A DNA stretch of 64,000 nucleotides from sequence record ON286972. The stretch is one strand, 5' to 3'. Origin of the DNA: Escherichia phage A4. Position 1 is the stretch's first letter, and every line of letters starts with the position of its first letter. The position numbers were made by a program, and so were the translations under genes. Under the pieces are notes generated by a model. The model had not been told where the DNA came from and ran no database searches. It saw only the letters and a program-made list of their open reading frames with translations. Of this stretch, positions 1-12,265 are shown piece after piece.

Positions 1-1439
1 TTATTAGCATTGTTAAAATTAGTTTCTTTATTAAACGTGGACACCGAGTTAACTGTTAATAAATTAGTTGAACTACCAGTTCCTAATATAGTATTACCTT
101 TAACGTTCAAATTACCATTAGTTGTAACATTTGAAACCGCCGTAACATCACCCGTTAAAGTACTAATACCATCAACTTCTAAGTTTCCATGTAATTTGGT
201 TACACCATTTTGCATTTCAACTTGTACTTTGTTCATAGAACTAAATGACAAAATATTATTTTCCCCACTAATACCAACATTTGTATTAGAATTATTAGCA
301 AAACGTAATGTTGGTGCGGTTGCGGGTGCAGTGGTGCTTTGATATAAATTCAAAGAACCGTTTGTTACTCGCACACGTTCAACACCTGCTGTGGTTAAAC
401 CAATAGCGGCATCTGCTGGGTGGAAAATACCAGTTTTTGTGTCAGTCCATTTACTTGGATCGTTTCCTGGGTTAGTATTTGGGTCATATGGAGCGTTATT
501 AAAGCCTATAGCTGGCTCTGTAGCACTACCATAAGTTACCCCTAGTCTTCCTTTGCCTATCAGTCCATCATCAACCATAGAGTCACCAGTGCGGCGTAAG
601 CCCTCTAATACGAGGTTATCTAAGGTAGTTTGAACTGTACCTGCGTTGGTACTGAATTGACGTTGACTACCAACCATGATAGTGTTATCATACAGTACTG
701 AAGAAGCTGAAATACTAGCTCTTGACTGACGTAGGCGAATGTTTTTAGTTTCAGTGATGATAATCCAGTCACTATCAGCTAATGCAGTTTGGCCTTGTGG
801 TGTTAAAGATGTATCAAACGGTGTAGTGATCGATTCATCTTGTGCCAAATTCACAAGACCTTCATGACCACTTGCTGGGATTGCAGTTGTTACAATACGA
901 GCAAATGCATAACTTACCAATTTTTTAGTTGGTTCAATTGGGTTTTGATCTATATAATATAGAATTTCAATCCAATCACCTTGACCAGTTGGGTTCACTG
1001 GTGTGAATTTAACTGGATTTGTTGTAGGGGTATTTTGTGTATAGTGCTCTTGTGCGGCATCCATAATACCACGAACTACATAATAATCACCATTCAAAGA
1101 AACTGATGGTGCAGGTAATGCAGCATAGGATGCGGGTGGGTTTGTATCATCTTCAATAGCATCATATGTACCAAGGAATTGCAATCCACTTGTTACAGAA
1201 TCTGGTAATTGAGATGACAATAGTTTACCATTTGCATCTAGGTTTGCAAAACGTCTATACGCAACTGAACCATCTTCAAATTCGAGAACACCTTCGAATG
1301 CTTTCCATTCAGTGTTGTATCGAATCATACCTGTACGCATTTGGTCTGCTGTTACTATCGTTGGGGCTTTTGGTAGTTCAAGGAAAGCTTTGCTATCTAT
1401 GATAACACCACCATCACCACGAATTCTATTAATTGACAT
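1..1439 (-). CDS. tail fibre protein, partial (C-terminus beyond window edge)
   Basis: Minus-strand frame open from ATG 1439-1437 (MSINRIRGDGGVIIDSKAFLELPK...) to position 1; absent from ORF track because no stop lies in the window. Thr/Asn/Gly-rich distal part resembles the 1845-aa fibre. Late-promoter-like motif upstream. Confidence 0.5.
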   Translation of the reverse strand, partial: MSINRIRGDGGVIIDSKAFLELPKAPTIVTADQMRTGMIRYNTEWKAFEGVLEFEDGSVAYRRFANLDANGKLLSSQLPDSVTSGLQFLGTYDAIEDDTNPPASYAALPAPSVSLNGDYYVVRGIMDAAQEHYTQNTPTTNPVKFTPVNPTGQGDWIEILYYIDQNPIEPTKKLVSYAFARIVTTAIPASGHEGLVNLAQDESITTPFDTSLTPQGQTALADSDWIIITETKNIRLRQSRASISASSVLYDNTIMVGSQRQFSTNAGTVQTTLDNLVLEGLRRTGDSMVDDGLIGKGRLGVTYGSATEPAIGFNNAPYDPNTNPGNDPSKWTDTKTGIFHPADAAIGLTTAGVERVRVTNGSLNLYQSTTAPATAPTLRFANNSNTNVGISGENNILSFSSMNKVQVEMQNGVTKLHGNLEVDGISTLTGDVTAVSNVTTNGNLNVKGNTILGTGSSTNLLTVNSVSTFNKETNFNNAN

Positions 1440-2380: not shown

Positions 2381-5300
2381 TTAAGCAGTACGTTGAGCAA
2401 TAAACATATCTACTACTGGACTGTATCCATCATAAATCAACTGAACGATACTCACTCCACCTGGATTTGTGTTAATTTCACCACCAACGTTTGCATAAGT
2501 TCCGTCCCAATCAAAACTATGTCCACCAGTTGTATCTTGTGCGACATAGATATAATAAGAACCAGCTTTACCACTACCAATTAAACCAGTTATTGGTGTC
2601 ATCATTACGTTTTGATCTAGTGTTATATAATACACATTTGATAGACCATCTGGTGTCCAATTACCACCAACAGCAGCAGTACTTGCAGTAACTTTAGGTG
2701 ATGGAGTAACAGCATACTTTTTAGTAGTTACACTTTCAGTTACTAAATCAGCAATATCTGTATGTAGTGTACCTTCAATAGTTACATCTTTAGCAAATGT
2801 TGCATTTTCAGCAAATGAAGATGTACCAGTAACTGTGATTGCATCAGCAGACGCAGAACCTAGTGTTACAGCACCTTTAAGGTTAGTAGCACCAGTAATT
2901 GCTGCACCACCCGCAACTACATTGAAGCCACCCGCAGTGATTTCGATACCACCAGTACTAACAGTTAGTTTCTTACCGATAGTAACAACATCAGATAGTG
3001 TAGTTGCACCAGTAACTGCTAGAGTTGTGTTAATCTTAGCACTTGCCATAGTTGCTAGGCCAGAAGTTGTAATAGTTGCAGTAGTTACTGCACCAGACGC
3101 ACTAACGTTTGCACCAGACACATCACCAGTTGTGGTGATTGCACCATCACCAGCGTTGATAGTAGCACCATTAGTTGCAATACCACCTTTCAAAGTACTC
3201 AAACCTTCAGCAGTGATTGTTGAACCAACTGTTAGGGTTGTACCAGCAGCGATAAAGGTTGTAGAAGTTAGAGATTTAACTTCAACTGCACTTGCAGATT
3301 GGTCCAGTGTACCAATAATCTTACCACTAACAGTAAAGTCGCCAGTAGTTACTGCGTTACCATTAACAGTTAGGCTGTTAGCTGTTGAACCTTGTGCACC
3401 GAATGTTGCAGCACGTGCGTGCATATCTTCATCAGTAGTAATATCCTCAACTGCGTGAATTGTGGTATTAGAAGTTAATGAGTTCAGGGAAATATCCTGA
3501 CCAGCCAAATCTACTGAACCGTTAATATTACCAGCAACAAATAGGTTACTACCAATATAAGTATCACCAACAAATTGGATAGTTTCCGGTCTTGAACTAA
3601 CTTTAGGACCGATGATAATACCTTTCGCAGAAATATCAGCTTTAGGCATAGTCACAGTAGAAGCATCAGAGATGTTCACGGATGCACCATTAACAACCAA
3701 AGCACCACCAACAGTCAAACCAGTAGTTACCGCTGCACTACCAAATGTACCTTTACCAGTTGTGGTAATTGTAGTACCAGTAATGTCACCAGCAGCAGTG
3801 ATTGCGGTATTTGCACTAACAGCCAAACCACCAGTTAGAGTGCTTAGACCAGTAACTTCTAGTGTTTCTCTGGATTTCAAGCTTTTCGCATCAACTGGAG
3901 TAGTAGATAGATCCAATGTTCCAGGGTTTAGTGTTCCATTAATGGTAACATCACCAGAAACTGTTAGTGAACTGAGAGCAGCTTCACCAGCGGTTAGTTT
4001 TCCAGTTAGATTTGTAGTACCAGTAACAGCCAAAGCACCACCAGCACTTAGAGCACCAGTAACTTCCGCACTACTTAATGTAGCTTTACCACTTGTTGAA
4101 AGAGTAGTAGTGTTAGTACCACCATTTAGAGTTGAAACACCAGTAACAGTTAGTGTAGTACCAGCAGTTACAGAACCGAGTGCAGTTAAGTTAGCACTTG
4201 CATCAACACCTTCAACGTTTAGAACAGCAGAACCTAAGTTTAGGCTACCTTCAGGTGTAAATGCACCTTTAACAGTTAGGTCACCAGTAACAACTGCATC
4301 ACCTGAAACATCAACACTTGCTAGTGTTGCTTTACCAGAAGTTTGTAGAGTTGCGGATTGAACTTCACCAGTAGTTTTGATTAATGCAGAACCTGCATCA
4401 ACCCCACCAGATAGAGTACTTAGTCCAGTAACACCTAATGTTTCACCAATTGTCAAATAACCACCAACAGTTGCGTCATTATCAACTGCTACACCAACAC
4501 CAGTAGCACTTACTTGGATTGATTTAGAAGTAATTTTACCACCAACATCAACAGTACCATCAAAAGTTGCAGCACCTACAGTATGTAGGGTTGAACTTAG
4601 TGTAGTTGCACCAGAAATTGTTGGAGCACCAGTAATTGTACCAGTAGTTAGAATTAGGTCAGTACCAACAGTAGTACTTGTAGTACTTGCTAATGAGTTA
4701 GTTTCCAAATCAGCATTTGTGATAGTCAAGTTACCATCGATAGTAACGTCATTATCAACTTGTAGTGATTTAACAGTCAAATCAGTTGTACTAAAATCAA
4801 CGGAAGTTGCAGTGAAAGCACCTTCAACGTGCAAATCACCAGTAACATCTGTTGGTTTAGCTAGTGTTATTTTATCTCCAGCACTTGTGTATGAACCAGC
4901 ACTTACTGAACCATCAACCACTGCCGCAGCAGCAACTTTCAAGTTTCCAGAAGCAACAGTCAAGCCACCTTTAGCAGTAATACCACCGACGTTTACAGTT
5001 ACTGCGTTACCAAATGTTGAAGTACCAGTAACTTCAAGTGCACCAGAAACGGTCGCTTTACCACCGACTGTTGCATCACCAGTAACATTCAATTTACCAG
5101 CGGTTGCTTCAGTACTTGTTAGTTTTGGTAGAATACTTGGTTCAGTATTTTCAGTAACAGTAATAACACCAGAAGAAGTTAGTGATTTAACAGTTAGATC
5201 TGCCGCAGCAGCATTAATTGCACCATCAACAGTTAAGCTTCCACCAATGGTTGCACCTTCAGTTGTTGTTAATGATTTAGAACTGATATCAACTGGGCTT

Positions 5301-7918
5301 AAATCTAATCCACCTTCAGGTGTAAATGTACCTTTAACAGTTAAGTCACCATGTGCAACTGTATCATTTTCTAAATTAATACCATCGGTATTAACAATAG
5401 AAGGAGTAGTTACAGAAACAGCAGAAACAGCAGCCAATGTACTTTCACCAGTAACATTTAATGTAGAAATGTTTGCTGTAGTTACTGTTGCTGTACCAGT
5501 TGTACTGTTAGTTGTAGTAATATCAGTACTTTGTAATTTTGGTAGAATGTTAGTTCCAGTAGCATCATTACTAATCACAGGACCAGCACTAGTTAAAGAT
5601 TTAACACTTACATCTGCTGCACTTAAATCTACAGTACCATCAACAGTTAGGTTTCCACCTATATGTGCACTTTCAGATACATCAAGTGTTTTAACAGTTA
5701 CATCAGCCGCACTTAGGTCAATAACACCAGCCGTTAAAGTTCCAGTAACATTCAAATCACCACCAACTGATGCATTATGATCTACACTTAGACCAGTTCC
5801 GGTTCCGGTAATTTGTGCGGAAGCTGCGGTCACTTTAGTAGTTGCTGTGATATTTGGGGCAGAGATAGTACCGTCAGATTCAATTGAACCAGTTTCTAAT
5901 GCATCAGAACCAACACCAGTAACTTTACCAGTAACTTCAACTTTCAAGCCACTAAAGAGTGCGTTTCCACCAACACTTAGATTAGTTCCCACTGCAACTT
6001 CTTCAGTTGTGGTTACAGAATTAGGTAGAATGTCTAGACCATCAACGTTTGCTTTAATTGCAGCACCAGATAGTGTACCAGTAACGTTCAAATCTTTAAC
6101 AGTGGTTGTTTGACCAACAACTTCAAATAAACCATCAACTACCGTGTTACCAACCAATGTGGTAGTACCGTCAACTGTTAGGTTTCCAGATGCAGTTACG
6201 TCAACACCTTTAACATTACCAGATGCAGTTACATCTTTAGGAGTAATGTCTTGACCAGCTAGTGTAATACCAGTTGTAGTTCCAGTAACAGTCAAATCAG
6301 TTATAGTTGTGCCTTTTAGAACGGAATCCCCATCAACTGTTAGTGTACCAGAAGCATCTAGATTAACACCACTAATATTACCAGAAGCAGTTACATCTTT
6401 AGGTGTAATATCTTGACCAGAAATGTCAGGAACAAAACCAGTAACTGTACCAGTGAAATTAACGTCTTTGAATTGAGCCTTACCATCCACATCTAGAGTT
6501 AATGTATTTGGATCTTGTACCGCATTACCAGTTATTTTCAAATAATCAAATAGGTTCAAACCTTTTGCTGTAATACCGTAGGTAGATGCAGATACATCAC
6601 CAAATGTAGCAGTTTTCAGTACTGTTAGATTTGCTGGGGTCATTAATTCAGACTGTACTTCGTTTTGTAGAATTACAGTTGGGCGTAAACCAGGAGCAGT
6701 ATATGTAAAGTTAACTTTAGCATTCGTGTCTGCTACGTTTCCACCTAAAGTGACAGATTTTAAATTAGCATTCGCAGTTGAACCAACAATATTAGATTCT
6801 AGGTTTAATGCACCTTTTAGTGTAGTTAGTTTTTCAACAACTAAATTATCCGCAGTAATATCACTTAGTACAAAGTTACCTGATAGTGTTCCAGTAATAT
6901 CCAAATCACCAACAGTAGTTTTACCAGTAATATTAGTAGTTCCATCAACTTGTAGGTCAGTTAATTGTGTTTTACCTTTAGTTACACGTAGAATTGGTGT
7001 GGTTGGATCTTGTATTGAGTTACCAGAAAGTGTTAGGTAATCAAATAGGTTCAAACCTTTTGCGGTAATACCATTGGTTGCTGCTGATACATCACCAAAT
7101 GTAGCAGTTTTAAGTACTGTTAGATTTGCTGGAGTCATTAGCTCGGACTGTACTTCGTTTTGTAGAATTACAGTTGGGCGTAATCCTGGAGCAGTGTATG
7201 CAAAGCCTAGGCGTGCAGTCGAGTCCGCTGCATTAGAACCTAAAGATACAGCTTTTATGTTTGCTACAGTATTAGTACCAATGATGTTTGATTCTAGGGT
7301 TACAGCACCTTTTAATGTAGATAGTTTTTCAACAACTAAATTATCGGTATTAACATCCCCTAATGTGAAATCACCATCTAATTTACCAGTTACAGTTAGA
7401 TTCTCAACGGTTGCACCAGTTGCAGTAATATCAGTTGCTGATACAGTTGCAATGGTTGCTTCATTAGCAGTTAATTTATCAAAGCTTGCAGTGGTTGCTG
7501 CCGCAGCAGTGAGGTTACCATTTAATGTTGTTGTACCATTAACTTCTAATGCAGAAGTGGTGGTATCTTGAAAAATTGCTTTTCCTGATGTTTGTGTAAT
7601 ATCTTTGGCAAAAGTAGAAGTGCCATTAAAAGTAGCATTGGAATTAATAGTTGCTGTATCGGAACCAGCAGTAGTATTACCAATAACTGTATTGCCAAGT
7701 ACATCCATTCCACCCTTAAGTGACGCTTTGCCTGTAACATCGAGTGTTGTGTTGATTGTTGCTTGATCTACTGTAATTGCAGTGAAGGTAGCATCAGCGA
7801 AACTAACGGTCCCCTTAATGGTTACGTTTTTATCGAAGACCGCATTACCTTTAACTGATAATTCTTTACCAACATTAGTATTACCAGTTACTGCTAGATC
7901 TGTTTTTATCGAGTACAT
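2381..7918 (-). CDS. long tail fibre protein, highly repetitive
   Basis: 1845-aa ORF rich in Thr/Gly/Val/Ala with recurring LTVDG and DLTVKSL beta-strand-like repeats and two tandem ~165-aa repeats; GGAGGG Shine-Dalgarno before the ATG. Confidence 0.6.
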   Translation of the reverse strand: MYSIKTDLAVTGNTNVGKELSVKGNAVFDKNVTIKGTVSFADATFTAITVDQATINTTLDVTGKASLKGGMDVLGNTVIGNTTAGSDTATINSNATFNGTSTFAKDITQTSGKAIFQDTTTSALEVNGTTTLNGNLTAAAATTASFDKLTANEATIATVSATDITATGATVENLTVTGKLDGDFTLGDVNTDNLVVEKLSTLKGAVTLESNIIGTNTVANIKAVSLGSNAADSTARLGFAYTAPGLRPTVILQNEVQSELMTPANLTVLKTATFGDVSAATNGITAKGLNLFDYLTLSGNSIQDPTTPILRVTKGKTQLTDLQVDGTTNITGKTTVGDLDITGTLSGNFVLSDITADNLVVEKLTTLKGALNLESNIVGSTANANLKSVTLGGNVADTNAKVNFTYTAPGLRPTVILQNEVQSELMTPANLTVLKTATFGDVSASTYGITAKGLNLFDYLKITGNAVQDPNTLTLDVDGKAQFKDVNFTGTVTGFVPDISGQDITPKDVTASGNISGVNLDASGTLTVDGDSVLKGTTITDLTVTGTTTGITLAGQDITPKDVTASGNVKGVDVTASGNLTVDGTTTLVGNTVVDGLFEVVGQTTTVKDLNVTGTLSGAAIKANVDGLDILPNSVTTTEEVAVGTNLSVGGNALFSGLKVEVTGKVTGVGSDALETGSIESDGTISAPNITATTKVTAASAQITGTGTGLSVDHNASVGGDLNVTGTLTAGVIDLSAADVTVKTLDVSESAHIGGNLTVDGTVDLSAADVSVKSLTSAGPVISNDATGTNILPKLQSTDITTTNSTTGTATVTTANISTLNVTGESTLAAVSAVSVTTPSIVNTDGINLENDTVAHGDLTVKGTFTPEGGLDLSPVDISSKSLTTTEGATIGGSLTVDGAINAAAADLTVKSLTSSGVITVTENTEPSILPKLTSTEATAGKLNVTGDATVGGKATVSGALEVTGTSTFGNAVTVNVGGITAKGGLTVASGNLKVAAAAVVDGSVSAGSYTSAGDKITLAKPTDVTGDLHVEGAFTATSVDFSTTDLTVKSLQVDNDVTIDGNLTITNADLETNSLASTTSTTVGTDLILTTGTITGAPTISGATTLSSTLHTVGAATFDGTVDVGGKITSKSIQVSATGVGVAVDNDATVGGYLTIGETLGVTGLSTLSGGVDAGSALIKTTGEVQSATLQTSGKATLASVDVSGDAVVTGDLTVKGAFTPEGSLNLGSAVLNVEGVDASANLTALGSVTAGTTLTVTGVSTLNGGTNTTTLSTSGKATLSSAEVTGALSAGGALAVTGTTNLTGKLTAGEAALSSLTVSGDVTINGTLNPGTLDLSTTPVDAKSLKSRETLEVTGLSTLTGGLAVSANTAITAAGDITGTTITTTGKGTFGSAAVTTGLTVGGALVVNGASVNISDASTVTMPKADISAKGIIIGPKVSSRPETIQFVGDTYIGSNLFVAGNINGSVDLAGQDISLNSLTSNTTIHAVEDITTDEDMHARAATFGAQGSTANSLTVNGNAVTTGDFTVSGKIIGTLDQSASAVEVKSLTSTTFIAAGTTLTVGSTITAEGLSTLKGGIATNGATINAGDGAITTTGDVSGANVSASGAVTTATITTSGLATMASAKINTTLAVTGATTLSDVVTIGKKLTVSTGGIEITAGGFNVVAGGAAITGATNLKGAVTLGSASADAITVTGTSSFAENATFAKDVTIEGTLHTDIADLVTESVTTKKYAVTPSPKVTASTAAVGGNWTPDGLSNVYYITLDQNVMMTPITGLIGSGKAGSYYIYVAQDTTGGHSFDWDGTYANVGGEINTNPGGVSIVQLIYDGYSPVVDMFIAQRTA
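6404..7396. repeat. tandem intragenic duplication (2 x ~495 bp) in the long fibre gene
   Basis: DNA near 6541-6700 and 7041-7200 is near-identical; encodes two ~165-aa copies each containing TAPGLRPTVILQNEVQSELMTPANLTVLKTATFGDVSA. Confidence 0.7.
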
Positions 7919-8952: not shown

Positions 8953-11124
8953 TTATGGAAGTGTAATGTATGTAATTGGGGATTCGGCTAACAATGGAGT
9001 CCCATCAGGGAAAGCAGTTTTTATTTCGTCTGCTATATCAATGCAAAATACCGAGTTGACCACGTATGTAGCTCGTGTTATATGAGTGTGGAGATCAGTC
9101 CCATTTTCACCAGCACCAGGAATTACAATTCTTGTACCTGCTGCTTTAGCATATTGGTTTGTACCCCATGCAGTGTTATGTGTTCGAATAGTTTTAGCAC
9201 CAACTACTGCTGCTTTAAGCTGTTCATATTTTCCTACGAATGCACCAGCTACTGTTACTACATATTTACCCCCAGATTGTTTGTGTAAAATTGTTCCTTT
9301 GGGGAAATATCTACCACCTGGGAATTCATCATAAGGTAGATAATATTGCTCCGTGACTGGTATCAGTACTGGGCCACGGTGACCAGTTCCATCTATTTCA
9401 GTTGTTACCGTGAAGTTATTACCAGATTGATCTATTCTATCAACATACATTCGTGAGAATGAATAATTTGATATATTAGCGTCATCTTGAACTATATTAC
9501 CAATCCAACTGGTATATGTATAATTAGTTCTGGTATAAACGCCACCACCTTCACCATCTTGATATTGACCAATTACATCTAAATTCTTTGTATAAATTTT
9601 ACTGAATTTTGATGATGATGGTAATCCACGCCAATATAATTTTTCACAAGTTATATTGTGCATATCAGTTTCGTTAGTCCATGCGTTTGCACCGGATGTG
9701 TATATTTCTATACTAGATTCAGGAATGAAAACGTTTTGAACTTTAAAATCTTTTGGTGGACCTGCATACCATGCATATTGGTGTGTTGCATCAGCAGGGT
9801 TAACACCCCATGTAAATTTAATCATTCTGTTTGTTGGTGCAGTTGCTGGATCATCCAAATAGCGACCAGTTAATCCGTCAACAACAAAATCTTGACATCC
9901 ATAAGTGATGATACCTGCGGCAGTTAAGCCAGTTCCAGTTGATATTGTGGTTGATGGAAATGTCTCATTATCTATTATATTAAAATTCTTACCGACTTCA
10001 ACGTGTATACATTGACGACAGTTATATACTCTATTTCGAGCAATAGTGAAGTTTTTAACATATTGACTATCTGGAATATCAACTCCATATGGACCTTTAC
10101 CAGCAACACCGATACCGATACCCCAGTTTGATAGTGGGATTGGAGCGTTAGTACCATCAACGTTTTCAATATGGTTTCCTTCAATGATTAGACCATCAGT
10201 GAAGTGTCTTGAAACTACGTTTAATTCAATACCATCACCATAGATATCGTGAATATGGTTATATGCATAGCGAGCATATTTTACTATCTCACCACTACCA
10301 CCTTGCTGTAGAACACCAAAGTTAACATCGTACATTTCATTGAAACAAAAGTCGAGAATACCTTCTGAAGTTAAATCACGCATAAAGAATGCACAGGTGA
10401 ATGTTGTACCATAAAAGCGGTTGAAATAGAACTTACCATTACCACCAGAAAACTGAATATAACTACGAGCAATGTTTGCCCCTTGTATTTTACAGTTGGT
10501 TGCTGATATCATTGTTTTACCAGTGCCAGTTAATGTGCCACCATACCATTCAATATTTTCAAAATATATTGCTTTGGATAAACGATAAACACCTTTACCT
10601 TGTATTTGGATATCATGAGCTTTAGCGTAATCAGCACAAGCTTGAACTGCGTCAGTATCATCAGCAATACCATCACCGATAGCACCAAATTCTTCAGGTG
10701 TTATATAATACAAAGCTTGTTGTAGTGTTCCACCAGAAACCAAACCAATATAATCAGAACCATTAGTACTGGATAATACTTTAGTATTAACATACATTGA
10801 TTTTATCCATGCACCATTCTTCTTAGCGAAAATATCTAGGATACCACCACTTTCTTGGTCTAATTGCAAATAAGTATAATTATTCTTACCAAGACTATTA
10901 TCTGGGATTTCATTCCCAAATAATACGGTTGGGTGGTCAGCGAGATACTTTGCAGTAATCGCTGAATTATCATTAATCGGTTCACCAACTTGTACGGGCA
11001 ATAAGATGCTTCCGAAACTATCTGTAATAGACAGGGAATTGTTAGCATAATTAATTAATGCCCCATTTTTACCAAGTATAAACTTGGTTTTCATTGTCCC
11101 TTCAAAGTTAGAAAAAACTGCCAT
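8953..11124 (-). CDS. tailspike protein with probable parallel beta-helix (putative depolymerase)
   Basis: 723-aa ORF; shared N-terminal anchor MAVFSNFEGTMKTKFILGKNGA; central region has periodic hydrophobic/Asn/Gly turns (IIEGNHIENV..., FTIARNRVYNC...) typical of pectate-lyase-fold tailspikes. Confidence 0.5.
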   Translation of the reverse strand: MAVFSNFEGTMKTKFILGKNGALINYANNSLSITDSFGSILLPVQVGEPINDNSAITAKYLADHPTVLFGNEIPDNSLGKNNYTYLQLDQESGGILDIFAKKNGAWIKSMYVNTKVLSSTNGSDYIGLVSGGTLQQALYYITPEEFGAIGDGIADDTDAVQACADYAKAHDIQIQGKGVYRLSKAIYFENIEWYGGTLTGTGKTMISATNCKIQGANIARSYIQFSGGNGKFYFNRFYGTTFTCAFFMRDLTSEGILDFCFNEMYDVNFGVLQQGGSGEIVKYARYAYNHIHDIYGDGIELNVVSRHFTDGLIIEGNHIENVDGTNAPIPLSNWGIGIGVAGKGPYGVDIPDSQYVKNFTIARNRVYNCRQCIHVEVGKNFNIIDNETFPSTTISTGTGLTAAGIITYGCQDFVVDGLTGRYLDDPATAPTNRMIKFTWGVNPADATHQYAWYAGPPKDFKVQNVFIPESSIEIYTSGANAWTNETDMHNITCEKLYWRGLPSSSKFSKIYTKNLDVIGQYQDGEGGGVYTRTNYTYTSWIGNIVQDDANISNYSFSRMYVDRIDQSGNNFTVTTEIDGTGHRGPVLIPVTEQYYLPYDEFPGGRYFPKGTILHKQSGGKYVVTVAGAFVGKYEQLKAAVVGAKTIRTHNTAWGTNQYAKAAGTRIVIPGAGENGTDLHTHITRATYVVNSVFCIDIADEIKTAFPDGTPLLAESPITYITLP

Positions 11125-11137
11125 TAATCAATCCCCC

Positions 11138-12265
11138 TTAGATGTTGTTTTCAATTGGTTGGATTGGTGCTTGCCATGCTAGAGTACAAATTACTTTCAT
11201 TTGACCATAATTACTGTTATTAACTGATTCATTAAAAACACAAGCAATGATTTCATCTTCTGCTGACGGTTCATGGTTTGTTTCATTAACGATAAAGCGT
11301 AGTGCACGGTTGATATCAAAATAATCAACTGGTGCAATAATAGTACCACCGATATCTTCTTGTGCTTCCCCACCTACACGAATGTGCATTTCAGTTACAG
11401 GGTCAATATAAGCTTGGGTGATATCAACTTCAATATTAGTTACTACATAACCTGCTGGGCATGTACCGATTACCAATACTGCGTTGGTCCATGAATGATC
11501 AATCGTGTTTACAACGATAATTGAATCTTTACCATTCTGACCCGGATCACCTTGCTTACCTTCTGGACCAGGTTCACCATCTTTACCACGGAACTCAATA
11601 CCTTCACTCCATTCTTTTGTTGGAGGGGTGGTTTGATTATTAATATCTACGTAATATAGTTTTCCATCAGTCGTGTTATAGAAGCAATAATCTTCTGGTA
11701 AGTTATCAATACTTGGGAAAGCAGGACCGTCACTGTCAATATGGAAACGACCACGTGGACCTTGTTCACCACGGAAATCAATACCATTACTCCATGAACC
11801 AGCTTTTTGATTATAAAAATACACTTTACCATCGGAAGTATTATAGAAAGTATATTGGTCAAATAGACCAGTGGTTGGGAAAACAGGACCAGAAGAATCA
11901 ATTTTAAATGATTTACCTGGTGCACCAGTATCACCTTTACCAAATTCTACTGTGTTCCAAGTACTTGGTTCTACACCAGCATCATTTGTTTTAAAATATA
12001 GTTTTGCAGTTCCATTTGCTAGACTTAAATAACACCAACCTTCTGGTTTATCAACTGCAAATGTACCGTCTGGTATTTCCATACCAACATCATCAGGATA
12101 GAAATTTTTACCATTAGTACCGTCATGTCCAACGACTAGACCCAAATCTTGTATTGTATTATCAGCGAATGTTACAATCAAATGTCCAGCAGAGTTAATT
12201 ACTAAACTCTTAATACCAGAATTGTTACATGAACCGCCAGACCCATTGTTGAATGAAATTGTCAT
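11138..12265 (-). CDS. tail fibre protein with collagen-like Gly-X-Y repeats
   Basis: 375-aa ORF with GDTGAPGKS, GEQGPRGRF and GKDGEPGPEGKQGDPGQNGKD triplet runs, each followed by an FxIDSxGPxFP...FYNTxDGK unit, repeated three times. Confidence 0.55.
   Translation of the reverse strand: MTISFNNGSGGSCNNSGIKSLVINSAGHLIVTFADNTIQDLGLVVGHDGTNGKNFYPDDVGMEIPDGTFAVDKPEGWCYLSLANGTAKLYFKTNDAGVEPSTWNTVEFGKGDTGAPGKSFKIDSSGPVFPTTGLFDQYTFYNTSDGKVYFYNQKAGSWSNGIDFRGEQGPRGRFHIDSDGPAFPSIDNLPEDYCFYNTTDGKLYYVDINNQTTPPTKEWSEGIEFRGKDGEPGPEGKQGDPGQNGKDSIIVVNTIDHSWTNAVLVIGTCPAGYVVTNIEVDITQAYIDPVTEMHIRVGGEAQEDIGGTIIAPVDYFDINRALRFIVNETNHEPSAEDEIIACVFNESVNNSNYGQMKVICTLAWQAPIQPIENNI

Follow-up and report, generated by a model that had tools for sequence, protein, structure and literature searches.

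How old are the tandem repeats inside the long tail-fibre gene of Escherichia phage A4, and is the fibre still changing in length through them? The window that we analysed is a 64,000-nt stretch of record ON286972, and the initial annotation of its letters described recent internal duplications in this gene, a fibre whose length is actively changing and a likely site of assembly error. The tandem duplications are certainly genuine, as both Tandem Repeats Finder and self-blastn confirm, but we think that they are most probably old (we would put this at about 80%): tandem copies that arose within the shaft of a long tail fibre attached to the baseplate, ancient and then homogenised, with a copy number that is now fixed. 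Duplication by itself matters little, internal duplication being the usual route by which phage fibre shafts grow. T4-type long tail fibres, for example, carry repeated shaft motifs, degenerate repeats being the building material of fibre shafts in general.

What is the fibre, and which phages share it?

The phage has been identified as a 121Q/Rak2-like jumbo coliphage, and its fibre gene (Table 1) had already been deposited and annotated. In a cluster look-up the 1845-aa product is an exact match to USL83645.1, the ‘long tail fiber proximal subunit’ of Escherichia phage A4, and it matches PHROG 4549, ‘tail fiber protein’, with E = 9.6e-179. The words ‘proximal subunit’ are inherited annotation; T4 gp34 chains are absent among the PDB sequence matches to the fibre at E ≤ 1. 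A literature search found no paper on phage A4.

Relatives are nevertheless easy to recognise. With tblastn, 97–100% of the protein is covered in vB_Ec-M-J, UE-S1 and TH47 at 39–43% identity, a full-length similarity that places it among the 121Q/phAPEC6-type long tail fibres of Asteriusvirus-like jumbo phages (PHROG 4549). The neighbourhood is shared as well, since the flanking tail and baseplate genes are also present in UE-S1, 121Q, Turkey5 and Ecwhy_1, and the gene order is that around 121Q gp571, UE-S1 520 and phAPEC6 gp256. Mass spectrometry has found the last of these, the positional homologue of the A4 fibre, in virions (180 kDa, 15 unique peptides; PMC7247149).

The neighbours of the A4 fibre gene encode further virion proteins, among them a colanidase-like tailspike. 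The antisense plus-strand ORFs within the fibre gene (for example, 6726-7040 and 7074-7571) were set aside as presumed side effects of its length and compositional bias. No Pfam family matched the fibre at E ≤ 0.01, and when the two-module segment (aa 171-500) was the query at E ≤ 10 the only match was a sub-threshold, Bactofilin-like one, of a kind typical of beta-helical repeats.

Table 1. Features of the A4 long tail-fibre gene (positions in the window)
Feature	Position	Strand	Residues and details
Long tail-fibre gene	2381-7918	minus	1845 aa; ORF list and translation
Module copy 1	6983-7408	minus	aa 171-312; module HMM 278.7 bits
Conserved core, copy 1	7025-7198	minus	aa 241-298; copy-2 partner 6530-6703
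Linker between copies	6914-6982	minus	aa 313-335, 23 aa, TKGKTQLTDLQVDGTTNITGKTT; copy-1-type junction signatures
Module copy 2	6488-6913	minus	aa 336-477; module HMM 278.0 bits
54-aa shaft unit 1	6269-6430	minus	aa 497-550; begins with GQDITPKDVTASGN; counterpart present in relatives
54-aa shaft unit 2	6107-6268	minus	aa 551-604; second GQDITPKDVTASGN; A4-lineage-specific duplicate
Further old shaft duplication	5109-5676	minus	5523-5676 vs 5109-5262, offset 414 nt; self-blastn 154 nt at 71.4%, E = 1.6e-17
Further old shaft duplication	3686-4109	minus	4019-4109 vs 3686-3776, offset 333 nt; self-blastn 91 nt at 76.9%, E = 2.9e-14
C-terminal tip domain	2393-2917	minus	aa 1668-1842; phmmer vs PDB 9cuy_g residues 630-792, E = 1.8e-26

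How alike are the repeated units?

Internal repeats were measured by blastn self-comparison and fixed-offset identity scans, blastp self-comparison having given no off-diagonal matches. The larger repeat lies far above chance: at 6543-7520 Tandem Repeats Finder sees 2.0 copies of a repeat with a period of 495 nt (73% matches), and self-blastn aligns 6989-7357 with 6494-6862 over 369 nt at 79.9% identity (E = 1.6e-93). When placed in register, the units span aa 171-335 (6914-7408) and aa 336-500 (6419-6913), 165 aa each, so that the initial annotation, which placed two copies of about 495 bp at 6404-7396, was right about the repeat and right to within ~15 nt about its position. The near-identity that it also saw does not hold up, as the copies share 76.5% of nucleotides without gaps over the 426-nt module and 70% of amino acids (dN 0.19, dS 0.62), and the longest exact run common to both is 38 nt. 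Their core is much better conserved, with 153 of 174 nt identical (88%), an aligned amino-acid identity of ~96% and a dN of 0.04 against a dS of 0.47 (dN/dS ~0.08), and the positions that are conserved family-wide (FGD, DYL, GN and L.V.G) fall within or just after it. The dS of the core compares with 0.78 in the N-terminal flank, a difference that involves few sites and carries no significant conversion-tract signal. Both copies are under purifying selection, and the reading frame is intact.

The second repeat, described at first as ~165-bp units at about 6120-6360 encoding one motif three times, is likewise present in a reduced form. Its period is 162 nt (54 aa), and GQDITPKDVTASGN occurs exactly twice in the fibre, at aa 501 and 555, the sole third candidate being a degenerate GQDISLNSLTSN at aa 1473. 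Whole units are 59% identical with a dS of 0.74, and blastn can align ~91 nt of them at 82.4% (6330-6420 vs 6168-6258); within the first 34 codons 79 of 102 nt agree (dS 0.46), and within the 14-aa GQD motif 41 of 45. In all relatives examined ‘SGQD(L/I)TP’ follows immediately after module 2, with a single 54-aa GQD unit at this place as against two in the A4 lineage. Altogether the gene holds at least five diverged internal duplications; the one at 3686-4109 was also picked up as repeat family D20.

Does the copy number vary among relatives?

Among close relatives it does not. The comparison with relatives that the initial annotation had proposed gives one and the same count throughout: in the protein cluster at 90% identity, each of the seven members (95–99.5% protein identity) has its two modules and its two GQD units in exactly the same places, in a protein of 1845 or 1847 aa. 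These seven are A4 and six relatives, all separate assemblies, of which six are on contigs of 351–359 kb and one on an 80-kb contig. The copy number is fixed in present-day relatives and the site is not hypervariable; it is the tip domain that is the most variable part of the fibre among them, the variable alignment columns concentrating at ~1739-1826.

The same count is found much further afield. Two modules at the matching location are present in UE-S1, 121Q, TH47, Turkey5, both fibre genes of Ecwhy_1 and vB_Ec-M-J, which is to say in every one of the Asteriusvirus fibres examined. Cronobacter phage GAP32 has two as well, in an array that begins later (~aa 270). With tblastn, each of the 32 Escherichia jumbo-phage records with strong matches has at least two places that match. 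Across the whole library of 1.84 billion proteins, a profile search found the module in only 38 representative clusters, and the 142-aa module is a small, well-delimited family, present one to three times per fibre at much the same place behind the N-terminal region and linking the fibres of jumbo phages to the rV5/phiTE-type long tail fibre. By lineage, the count is one in rV5-like, phiTE-like and shorter fibres, two in most jumbo phages and three in one lineage, and differences are seen only between deeply diverged lineages. The three-copy fibre, P0015, reads copy 1, a second copy-1-type module and then copy 2. Its extra module (83.5% nt, dS 0.53) makes this extra-copy event, the sole one measured, an old one too. 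Other searches brought little more: scans of IMG/VR and metagenome contigs returned 121Q itself and no new relatives, the gene had only short matches in the phage collection by megablast, and a word-indexed protein search, run with a repetitive sequence, gave 14 matches only.

One ancient duplication, or several?

This is where the evidence has to be weighed most carefully. In a neighbour-joining tree the Asteriusvirus copy 1s group together and the copy 2s group together, which means that the duplication is older than the split of these fibres and older than their fibre-gene duplication. The A4 copies group with each other (70% amino-acid identity, as against 49–60% to Asteriusvirus copy 1 or copy 2), and so do those of GAP32. 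Read on its own, the tree would fit an A4 lineage that duplicated the module independently after the Asteriusvirus split, with GAP32-like phages doing likewise and no gene conversion anywhere, and the periods (165 aa in A4, 170 in Asteriusvirus and 198 in GAP32) differ as such a history would have it. The dS values lean the same way, the A4 copies standing at roughly half of the A4–Asteriusvirus divergence on flanking genes (0.9–1.3 between A4 and 121Q or UE-S1). As a further calibration, copy 1 differs from copy 2 by a dS of 1.0–1.5 inside 121Q, UE-S1 and Ecwhy_1.

Against this stand the position and the junctions of the array. It lies about equally far from the N-terminus in A4 and in Asteriusvirus, GAP32 being the one in which it comes later. 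After copy 1, the A4 linker has the ‘VTKGKT..DLQV’ (more loosely, ‘VTKGKT..DL.V’) and the one-residue insertion that are specific to the sequence following Asteriusvirus copy 1, and the ‘GKTTVGDL.ITG..SG..F.D’ junction is common to A4 and the copy-1/copy-2 junctions of P0021, P0024 and P0025, signatures that span just ~12–20 residues. Independent origins would require at least three parallel events with matching boundaries, which is the less parsimonious course, and we consider them unlikely, if still the most serious competitor. Copies that are mutually closest, combined with junctions that are common to other lineages, point instead to an ancient duplication that was later homogenised, and this homogenisation is what we infer for A4. 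In addition, at five of the eight module positions that vary among close relatives the variant is the residue that the other copy has at the equivalent site. Within-genome similarity together with shared junctions would make this locus a small, testable case of concerted evolution in a phage structural gene.

On the reading that we prefer, then, the A4 fibre would be an elongated rV5/phiTE-type long tail fibre, built on a layout of one module, shaft repeats with a G.DI.P motif and a C-terminal tip domain. The jumbo-phage lineage would have duplicated the ~142-aa module with a short linker (23 aa in A4) before the examined Asteriusvirus fibres diverged, and both copies would then have persisted under purifying selection as building parts of the proximal shaft. 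The copies of the A4 lineage may later have been partly homogenised, probably by gene conversion, and have re-diverged since to ~77% DNA identity, while a second duplication, specific to that lineage, would have added one 54-aa shaft unit. Every duplication of this kind would make the fibre longer; scaling from the predicted phiTE fibre (793 aa, 512 Å), a 165-aa unit may add roughly 10 nm.

Could the modules be docking sites?

A more adventurous idea concerns function, namely that the modules act as hinges or as docking points, for instance for the accessory fibres or tailspikes of a branched fibre network, and that their number sets how many partners are attached. The very strong conservation of the core would suit such a role, as would the place of the array, which in A4, Asteriusvirus, rV5-like and phiTE-like fibres directly follows the N-terminal attachment region; the phiTE long fibre has been proposed to contact the short fibre beyond its modelled N-terminus (PMC11972413), and the colanidase-like tailspike and the other virion proteins are encoded next door. 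Structure prediction speaks against it. An AF2 monomer of the module from a 12-sequence alignment was unusable (pLDDT 42), and the one from 46 sequences is confident (pLDDT 88.9) but an extended chain with almost no intrachain secondary structure rather than a globular domain. Foldseek searches with the model turned up nothing in the PDB (best E = 6.2) and, in BFVD, only sequence homologues from the same family and with them no fold-based function; nor did any known adaptor domain, of the T4 gp10-like kind for example, match in fold. We consider docking or hinge sites improbable, and would give still less credence to the fuller version, in which one, two or three stations set the number of accessory fibres or spikes per long fibre and gene conversion keeps the copies similar so as to fit one partner. 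If true, the fibre networks of jumbo phages would contain a branching adaptor that is modular and countable.

Is the fibre changing now, or is the repeat an artefact?

A recent duplication, with the fibre changing in length at present, is very improbable indeed. It has in its favour a tandem arrangement that is real, the close match within the GQD motif and the one- and three-copy variants elsewhere in the family, and in the sense that module number has ranged from one to three over deep time the initial annotation was right that fibre length changes. What it does not accommodate is a dS between modules of 0.62 (0.47 even in their core), or about half of what flanking genes show between A4 and Asteriusvirus, a dS of 0.46 or more between GQD units, the identical layout in seven close relatives, the two modules of every Asteriusvirus fibre sampled and of GAP32, or the age of the extra copy in the three-copy lineage. 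An assembly artefact, whether expansion or collapse, has next to no chance of being the explanation: beyond the general risk at repeats it can draw only on two short single-copy contigs from public sequencing runs that could be collapsed (P0003 and P0005, 2.2–2.4 kb), whereas the copies differ at about one position in four, remain under purifying selection in an intact frame, recur with equal layout and protein length in seven separate assemblies and share no exact run longer than 38 nt, so that ordinary reads would not be expected to collapse or expand them, and we see no reason to flag the module repeat as an assembly problem. The single-copy form in P0003 and P0005 may also be a true deletion by unequal crossing-over at the shared STGTANF motif.

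How does the fibre compare with known systems?

The closest system is the baseplate long fibre of Asteriusvirus (121Q gp571, phAPEC6 gp256 and UE-S1 gp520), for which the usual annotation is ‘long tail fiber proximal subunit’. A4 shares with it the order of genes (colanidase-like protein, 300-aa structural protein, fibre and ~260-aa protein), the N-terminus MYSIKTDL, a similar length (1827–1841 aa in Asteriusvirus) and the two tandem modules at ~aa 170-480 followed by SGQD(L/I)TP. It differs in an overall identity of only ~40%, in a period of 165 rather than 170 aa with a remodelled linker, in its additional 54-aa GQD unit and in copies that are more alike (70% vs 63–68% of amino acids, and 96% vs 78–81% in the core).

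The second comparison is with rV5/phiTE-type fibres, such as that of phiTE (9cuy chain g, 793 aa) and that of Escherichia phage A73 (1077 aa), which run from the module through a G.DI.P shaft to a Phage_phiTE_241_C-type tip (PF26209, a Pfam family precomputed on the three-copy homologue P0015). In the module region phmmer aligns A4 residues 353-603 with residues 183-430 of 9cuy_g (E = 1e-13), BLASTP against the A73 fibre also supports the order of module and then G.DI.P shaft, and together with the tip match these alignments show that module, shaft and tip are all shared. Unlike A4, fibres of this type have one module and are much shorter, with a helical segment ahead of the module where A4 has a beta-rich N-terminus. 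No alignment was found between the N-termini of the two, nor for the ~170 residues with which the phiTE chain begins, where phiTE-type fibres are anchored to the wedge and sheath initiator by a helical bundle. The A4 and phiTE fibres are related in shaft and tip but different in their attachment region. No link to the module family could be drawn from the phi92 paper for phi92 fibre III (gp147). The cryo-EM model of the phiTE fibre covers residues 14-171 only, ending just before the module; that fibre is a trimer, with a distal part predicted to be an extended beta-helix (PMC11972413). By homology with it, the A4 fibre is presumably a homotrimer of mainly beta structure, and its repeats would then represent the ordinary modular growth of a trimeric, beta-structured shaft, an old and stable feature that A4 shares with its jumbo-phage relatives.

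Which gene carries the repeats, and what surrounds it?

The protein is identical in sequence to USL83645.1, the 'long tail fiber proximal subunit [Escherichia phage A4]', which is encoded on a 355.5-kb contig. Its PHROG match is 4549, 'tail fiber protein' (E = 9.6e-179), and Pfam gives it no family at a cut-off of E <= 0.01. The genes around it share ~77-85% DNA identity with those of Asteriusvirus jumbo coliphages (121Q, PBECO4, phAPEC6), and gene order is the same in 121Q (gp573-570) and UE-S1. The downstream DUF4376 protein has counterparts at the same position in these two phages (121Q gp570, UE-S1 gp519), and is much more diverged from them (48-49% at the amino-acid level) than are the fibre's upstream neighbours (63-64%). 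In phAPEC6, the equivalent position is occupied by the gene for gp256 (1841 aa), a '180-kDa tail fiber protein' detected in virions by mass spectrometry (PMC7247149). Elsewhere, the larger of two very large ORFs may correspond to the 382-kDa phAPEC6 virion protein gp245, and a tail protein gene (PHROG 13565) carries a 27-nt tandem repeat of 2.4 copies, probably a short collagen-like Gly-X-Y stretch; the product of this gene has a weak Pfam match to collagen repeat.

Coordinates of the fibre gene, its modules, neighbouring features and module pairs in related fibres
Feature	Amino acids	Nucleotides	Strand	Remark
DUF4376 protein, 262 aa		1521-2309	-	directly downstream of fibre; DUF4376 E = 2e-7
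Long tail-fibre ORF, 1845 aa		2381-7918	-	
Module copy 2	336-477	6488-6913	-	well-aligned part
Module copy 1	171-312	6983-7408	-	well-aligned part
Structural protein, 300 aa		8033-8935		between tailspike and fibre in shared order
Colanidase-like tailspike		8953-11124		first in shared gene order
Tail protein ORF		11138-12265	-	27-nt repeat at 11525-11588
Very large ORF, 3335 aa		20370-30377	-	
Very large ORF, 1154 aa		30429-33893	-	
Module pair, UE-S1, 121Q, TH47, Turkey5, Ecwhy_1 gp207	173-313 + 343-483			HMM
Module pair, neighbouring second fibre genes Ecwhy_1 gp208, vB_Ec-M-J gp303	120-260 + 290-430			HMM
Module pair, Cronobacter phage GAP32	272-408 + 470-605			HMM

How old and how stable are the repeats?

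The initial annotation had described two near-identical copies of ~495 bp, and it was right about period and place (TRF: period 495, 2.0 copies, 73% matches; self-blastn: 369 nt at 79.9%, E = 1.6e-93), with the two copies offset by exactly 165 aa in the protein, but not about near-identity. Indeed, the copies of the 142-aa module are 76.5% identical over 426 nt, with a longest identical in-register run of 38 nt and a best-matching stretch (aa 241-298) that agrees at 153 of 174 nt. Across the whole module dN is 0.19 and dS 0.62, while in its core dN is 0.04 and dS 0.47 (dN/dS ~0.08; all NG86), and the copies are under purifying selection. Since the genes flanking the fibre give a dS of 0.9-1.3 when A4 is compared with 121Q or UE-S1, the A4 copies coalesce at about half the A4-Asteriusvirus distance, and the duplication, judged by this sequence divergence, is not the recent event that had been proposed.

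Clustered at 90% identity, the A4 fibre falls in a group of seven members of 1845 or 1847 aa, 95.3-99.5% identical, which come from separate assemblies; six lie on 351-359-kb contigs and the other on a contig of 80 kb. Most are recorded as 'Escherichia coli' assemblies, and these look like phage genomes deposited inside bacterial assemblies. Module cores lie at aa 247 and 412 in all seven, and both GQD motifs, which belong to the shaft repeat that follows module copy 2, lie at aa 501 and 555 in six, the other member having a single substitution in the first motif. Every member has two modules, and the suggestion that fibre length is changing by duplication holds over deep time, but not as an ongoing process in the A4 genome. 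The suspicion of an assembly error fares no better: roughly one difference per four bases separates the copies, which would make read-level collapse implausible, and seven separate assemblies have the same layout.

The GQD repeat has a period of 54 aa (162 nt), and its motif GQDITPKDVTASGN, thought to occur three times, is found twice, at aa 501 and 555. Only its first ~30 codons are alignable (91 nt at 82.4%), identity over the entire unit being 59%. Self-comparison uncovers three more internal duplications in the gene, equally diverged (71-87% identity), so that the whole shaft has been built by serial duplication long ago.

Was the module duplicated once or several times?

With a module HMM, each of the Asteriusvirus fibres examined shows two tandem modules in the same place, and a tblastn search with a single module matched 57 phage records, with at least two module places in all 32 strongly matching Escherichia jumbo phages. 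The family is small: searching 1.84 billion representative proteins with a profile yields only 38 clusters. rV5-like fibres of ~1075 aa, such as that of phage A73, have one module, as do a phiTE-like 790-aa fibre and many fibres of 550-880 aa; several fibres of 1400-1850 aa have two; and three occur in P0015, a 2120-aa protein on a metagenome scaffold of jumbo-phage lineage (ENA; L010:1957-8319), whose cluster has seven members, some on 354-356-kb contigs. Pfam annotations PF26208 and PF26209 (Phage_phiTE_241_C) are precomputed on the rV5-like fibres P0006-P0014. In P0015, copy 1 is followed by another module of copy-1 type and then by copy 2; the extra module has 83.5% DNA identity to its source, copy 1, and a dS of 0.53, so that it too is old. 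Two Asteriusvirus-like fibres with a single module (P0003 and P0005) come from assemblies of public sequencing runs, on short contigs of 2.2-2.4 kb. Their junction falls in the STGTANF motif common to both copies, a result to be expected of deletion by unequal crossover and of assembly collapse alike.

A neighbour-joining tree puts the copy 1s from Asteriusvirus in one group and the copy 2s in another, and the duplication is therefore older than the split of these fibres and the duplication of their fibre gene. Ecwhy_1 (L007:11482-22265) and vB_Ec-M-J (L002) each have two related, adjoining long-fibre genes with two modules apiece, while A4, 121Q and UE-S1 have one such gene each, so whole-gene duplication also happens at this locus. 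In the same tree the two A4 copies cluster together, as do those of GAP32; those of A4 share 70% amino-acid identity (96% in the core), and 49-60% with either Asteriusvirus copy. Taken alone, this within-phage clustering suggests that the module was duplicated independently in separate lineages, but we consider this unlikely, because the A4 sequence after each copy, and the junction, match their counterparts in other lineages. Thus LRVTKGKTQLTDLQV, after copy 1, has the copy-1-specific 'VT.GKT..D..V' and a one-residue insertion, as in Asteriusvirus copy 1; what follows copy 2 agrees with the copy-2 context (V.GKA...DV.FTGTVTG...SGQD.TP); and the junction GKTTVGDLDITGTLSGNF resembles the copy-1/copy-2 junctions of the homologous fibres P0021, P0024 and P0025 (GKTTVGDLEITGSVSGLTF and similar). 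These shared signatures favour a single ancient duplication, after which gene conversion would have partly homogenised the copies within lineages. A small hint of homogenisation is that, at five of eight variable module positions among close relatives, the variant is the same residue that the other copy has at the corresponding place.

What might the module do?

A structure exists for one relative only, the 'putative tail fiber protein' of phiTE (PDB 9cuy chain g, 793 aa). A4 353-603 aligns with its residues 183-430 (E = 1e-13), and A4 1668-1842 with its C-terminal residues 630-792 (E = 1.8e-26). The phiTE long tail fibre is trimeric, and only residues 14-171 could be modelled (PMC11972413); we take chain g to be this fibre from the paper's description rather than from an explicit statement, and the module starts just past the solved part. 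An AF2 monomer of the A4 module built with 12 sequences was unusable (pLDDT 42), while 46 sequences gave a pLDDT of 88.9 and an extended chain with almost no intra-chain secondary structure, which has no structural neighbours in the PDB and matches only family members in BFVD. Such a model would fit a stretch of shaft that folds only when intertwined in a trimer, and one 165-aa unit would add ~10 nm, by proportion to phiTE. The seven close relatives differ in amino acids chiefly over the last ~100 residues (aa ~1740-1826; window 2393-2700), within the phiTE-241-C-like tip domain, a pattern that fits host-range variation and is expected of a putative receptor-binding tip. Two points are new, if only mildly: a small family of modules, in one to three copies, is now delimited, and there are signs of concerted evolution between copies. 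The A4 repeats themselves, old and fixed in current relatives, are an ordinary case of a phage tail-fibre shaft growing by modules.
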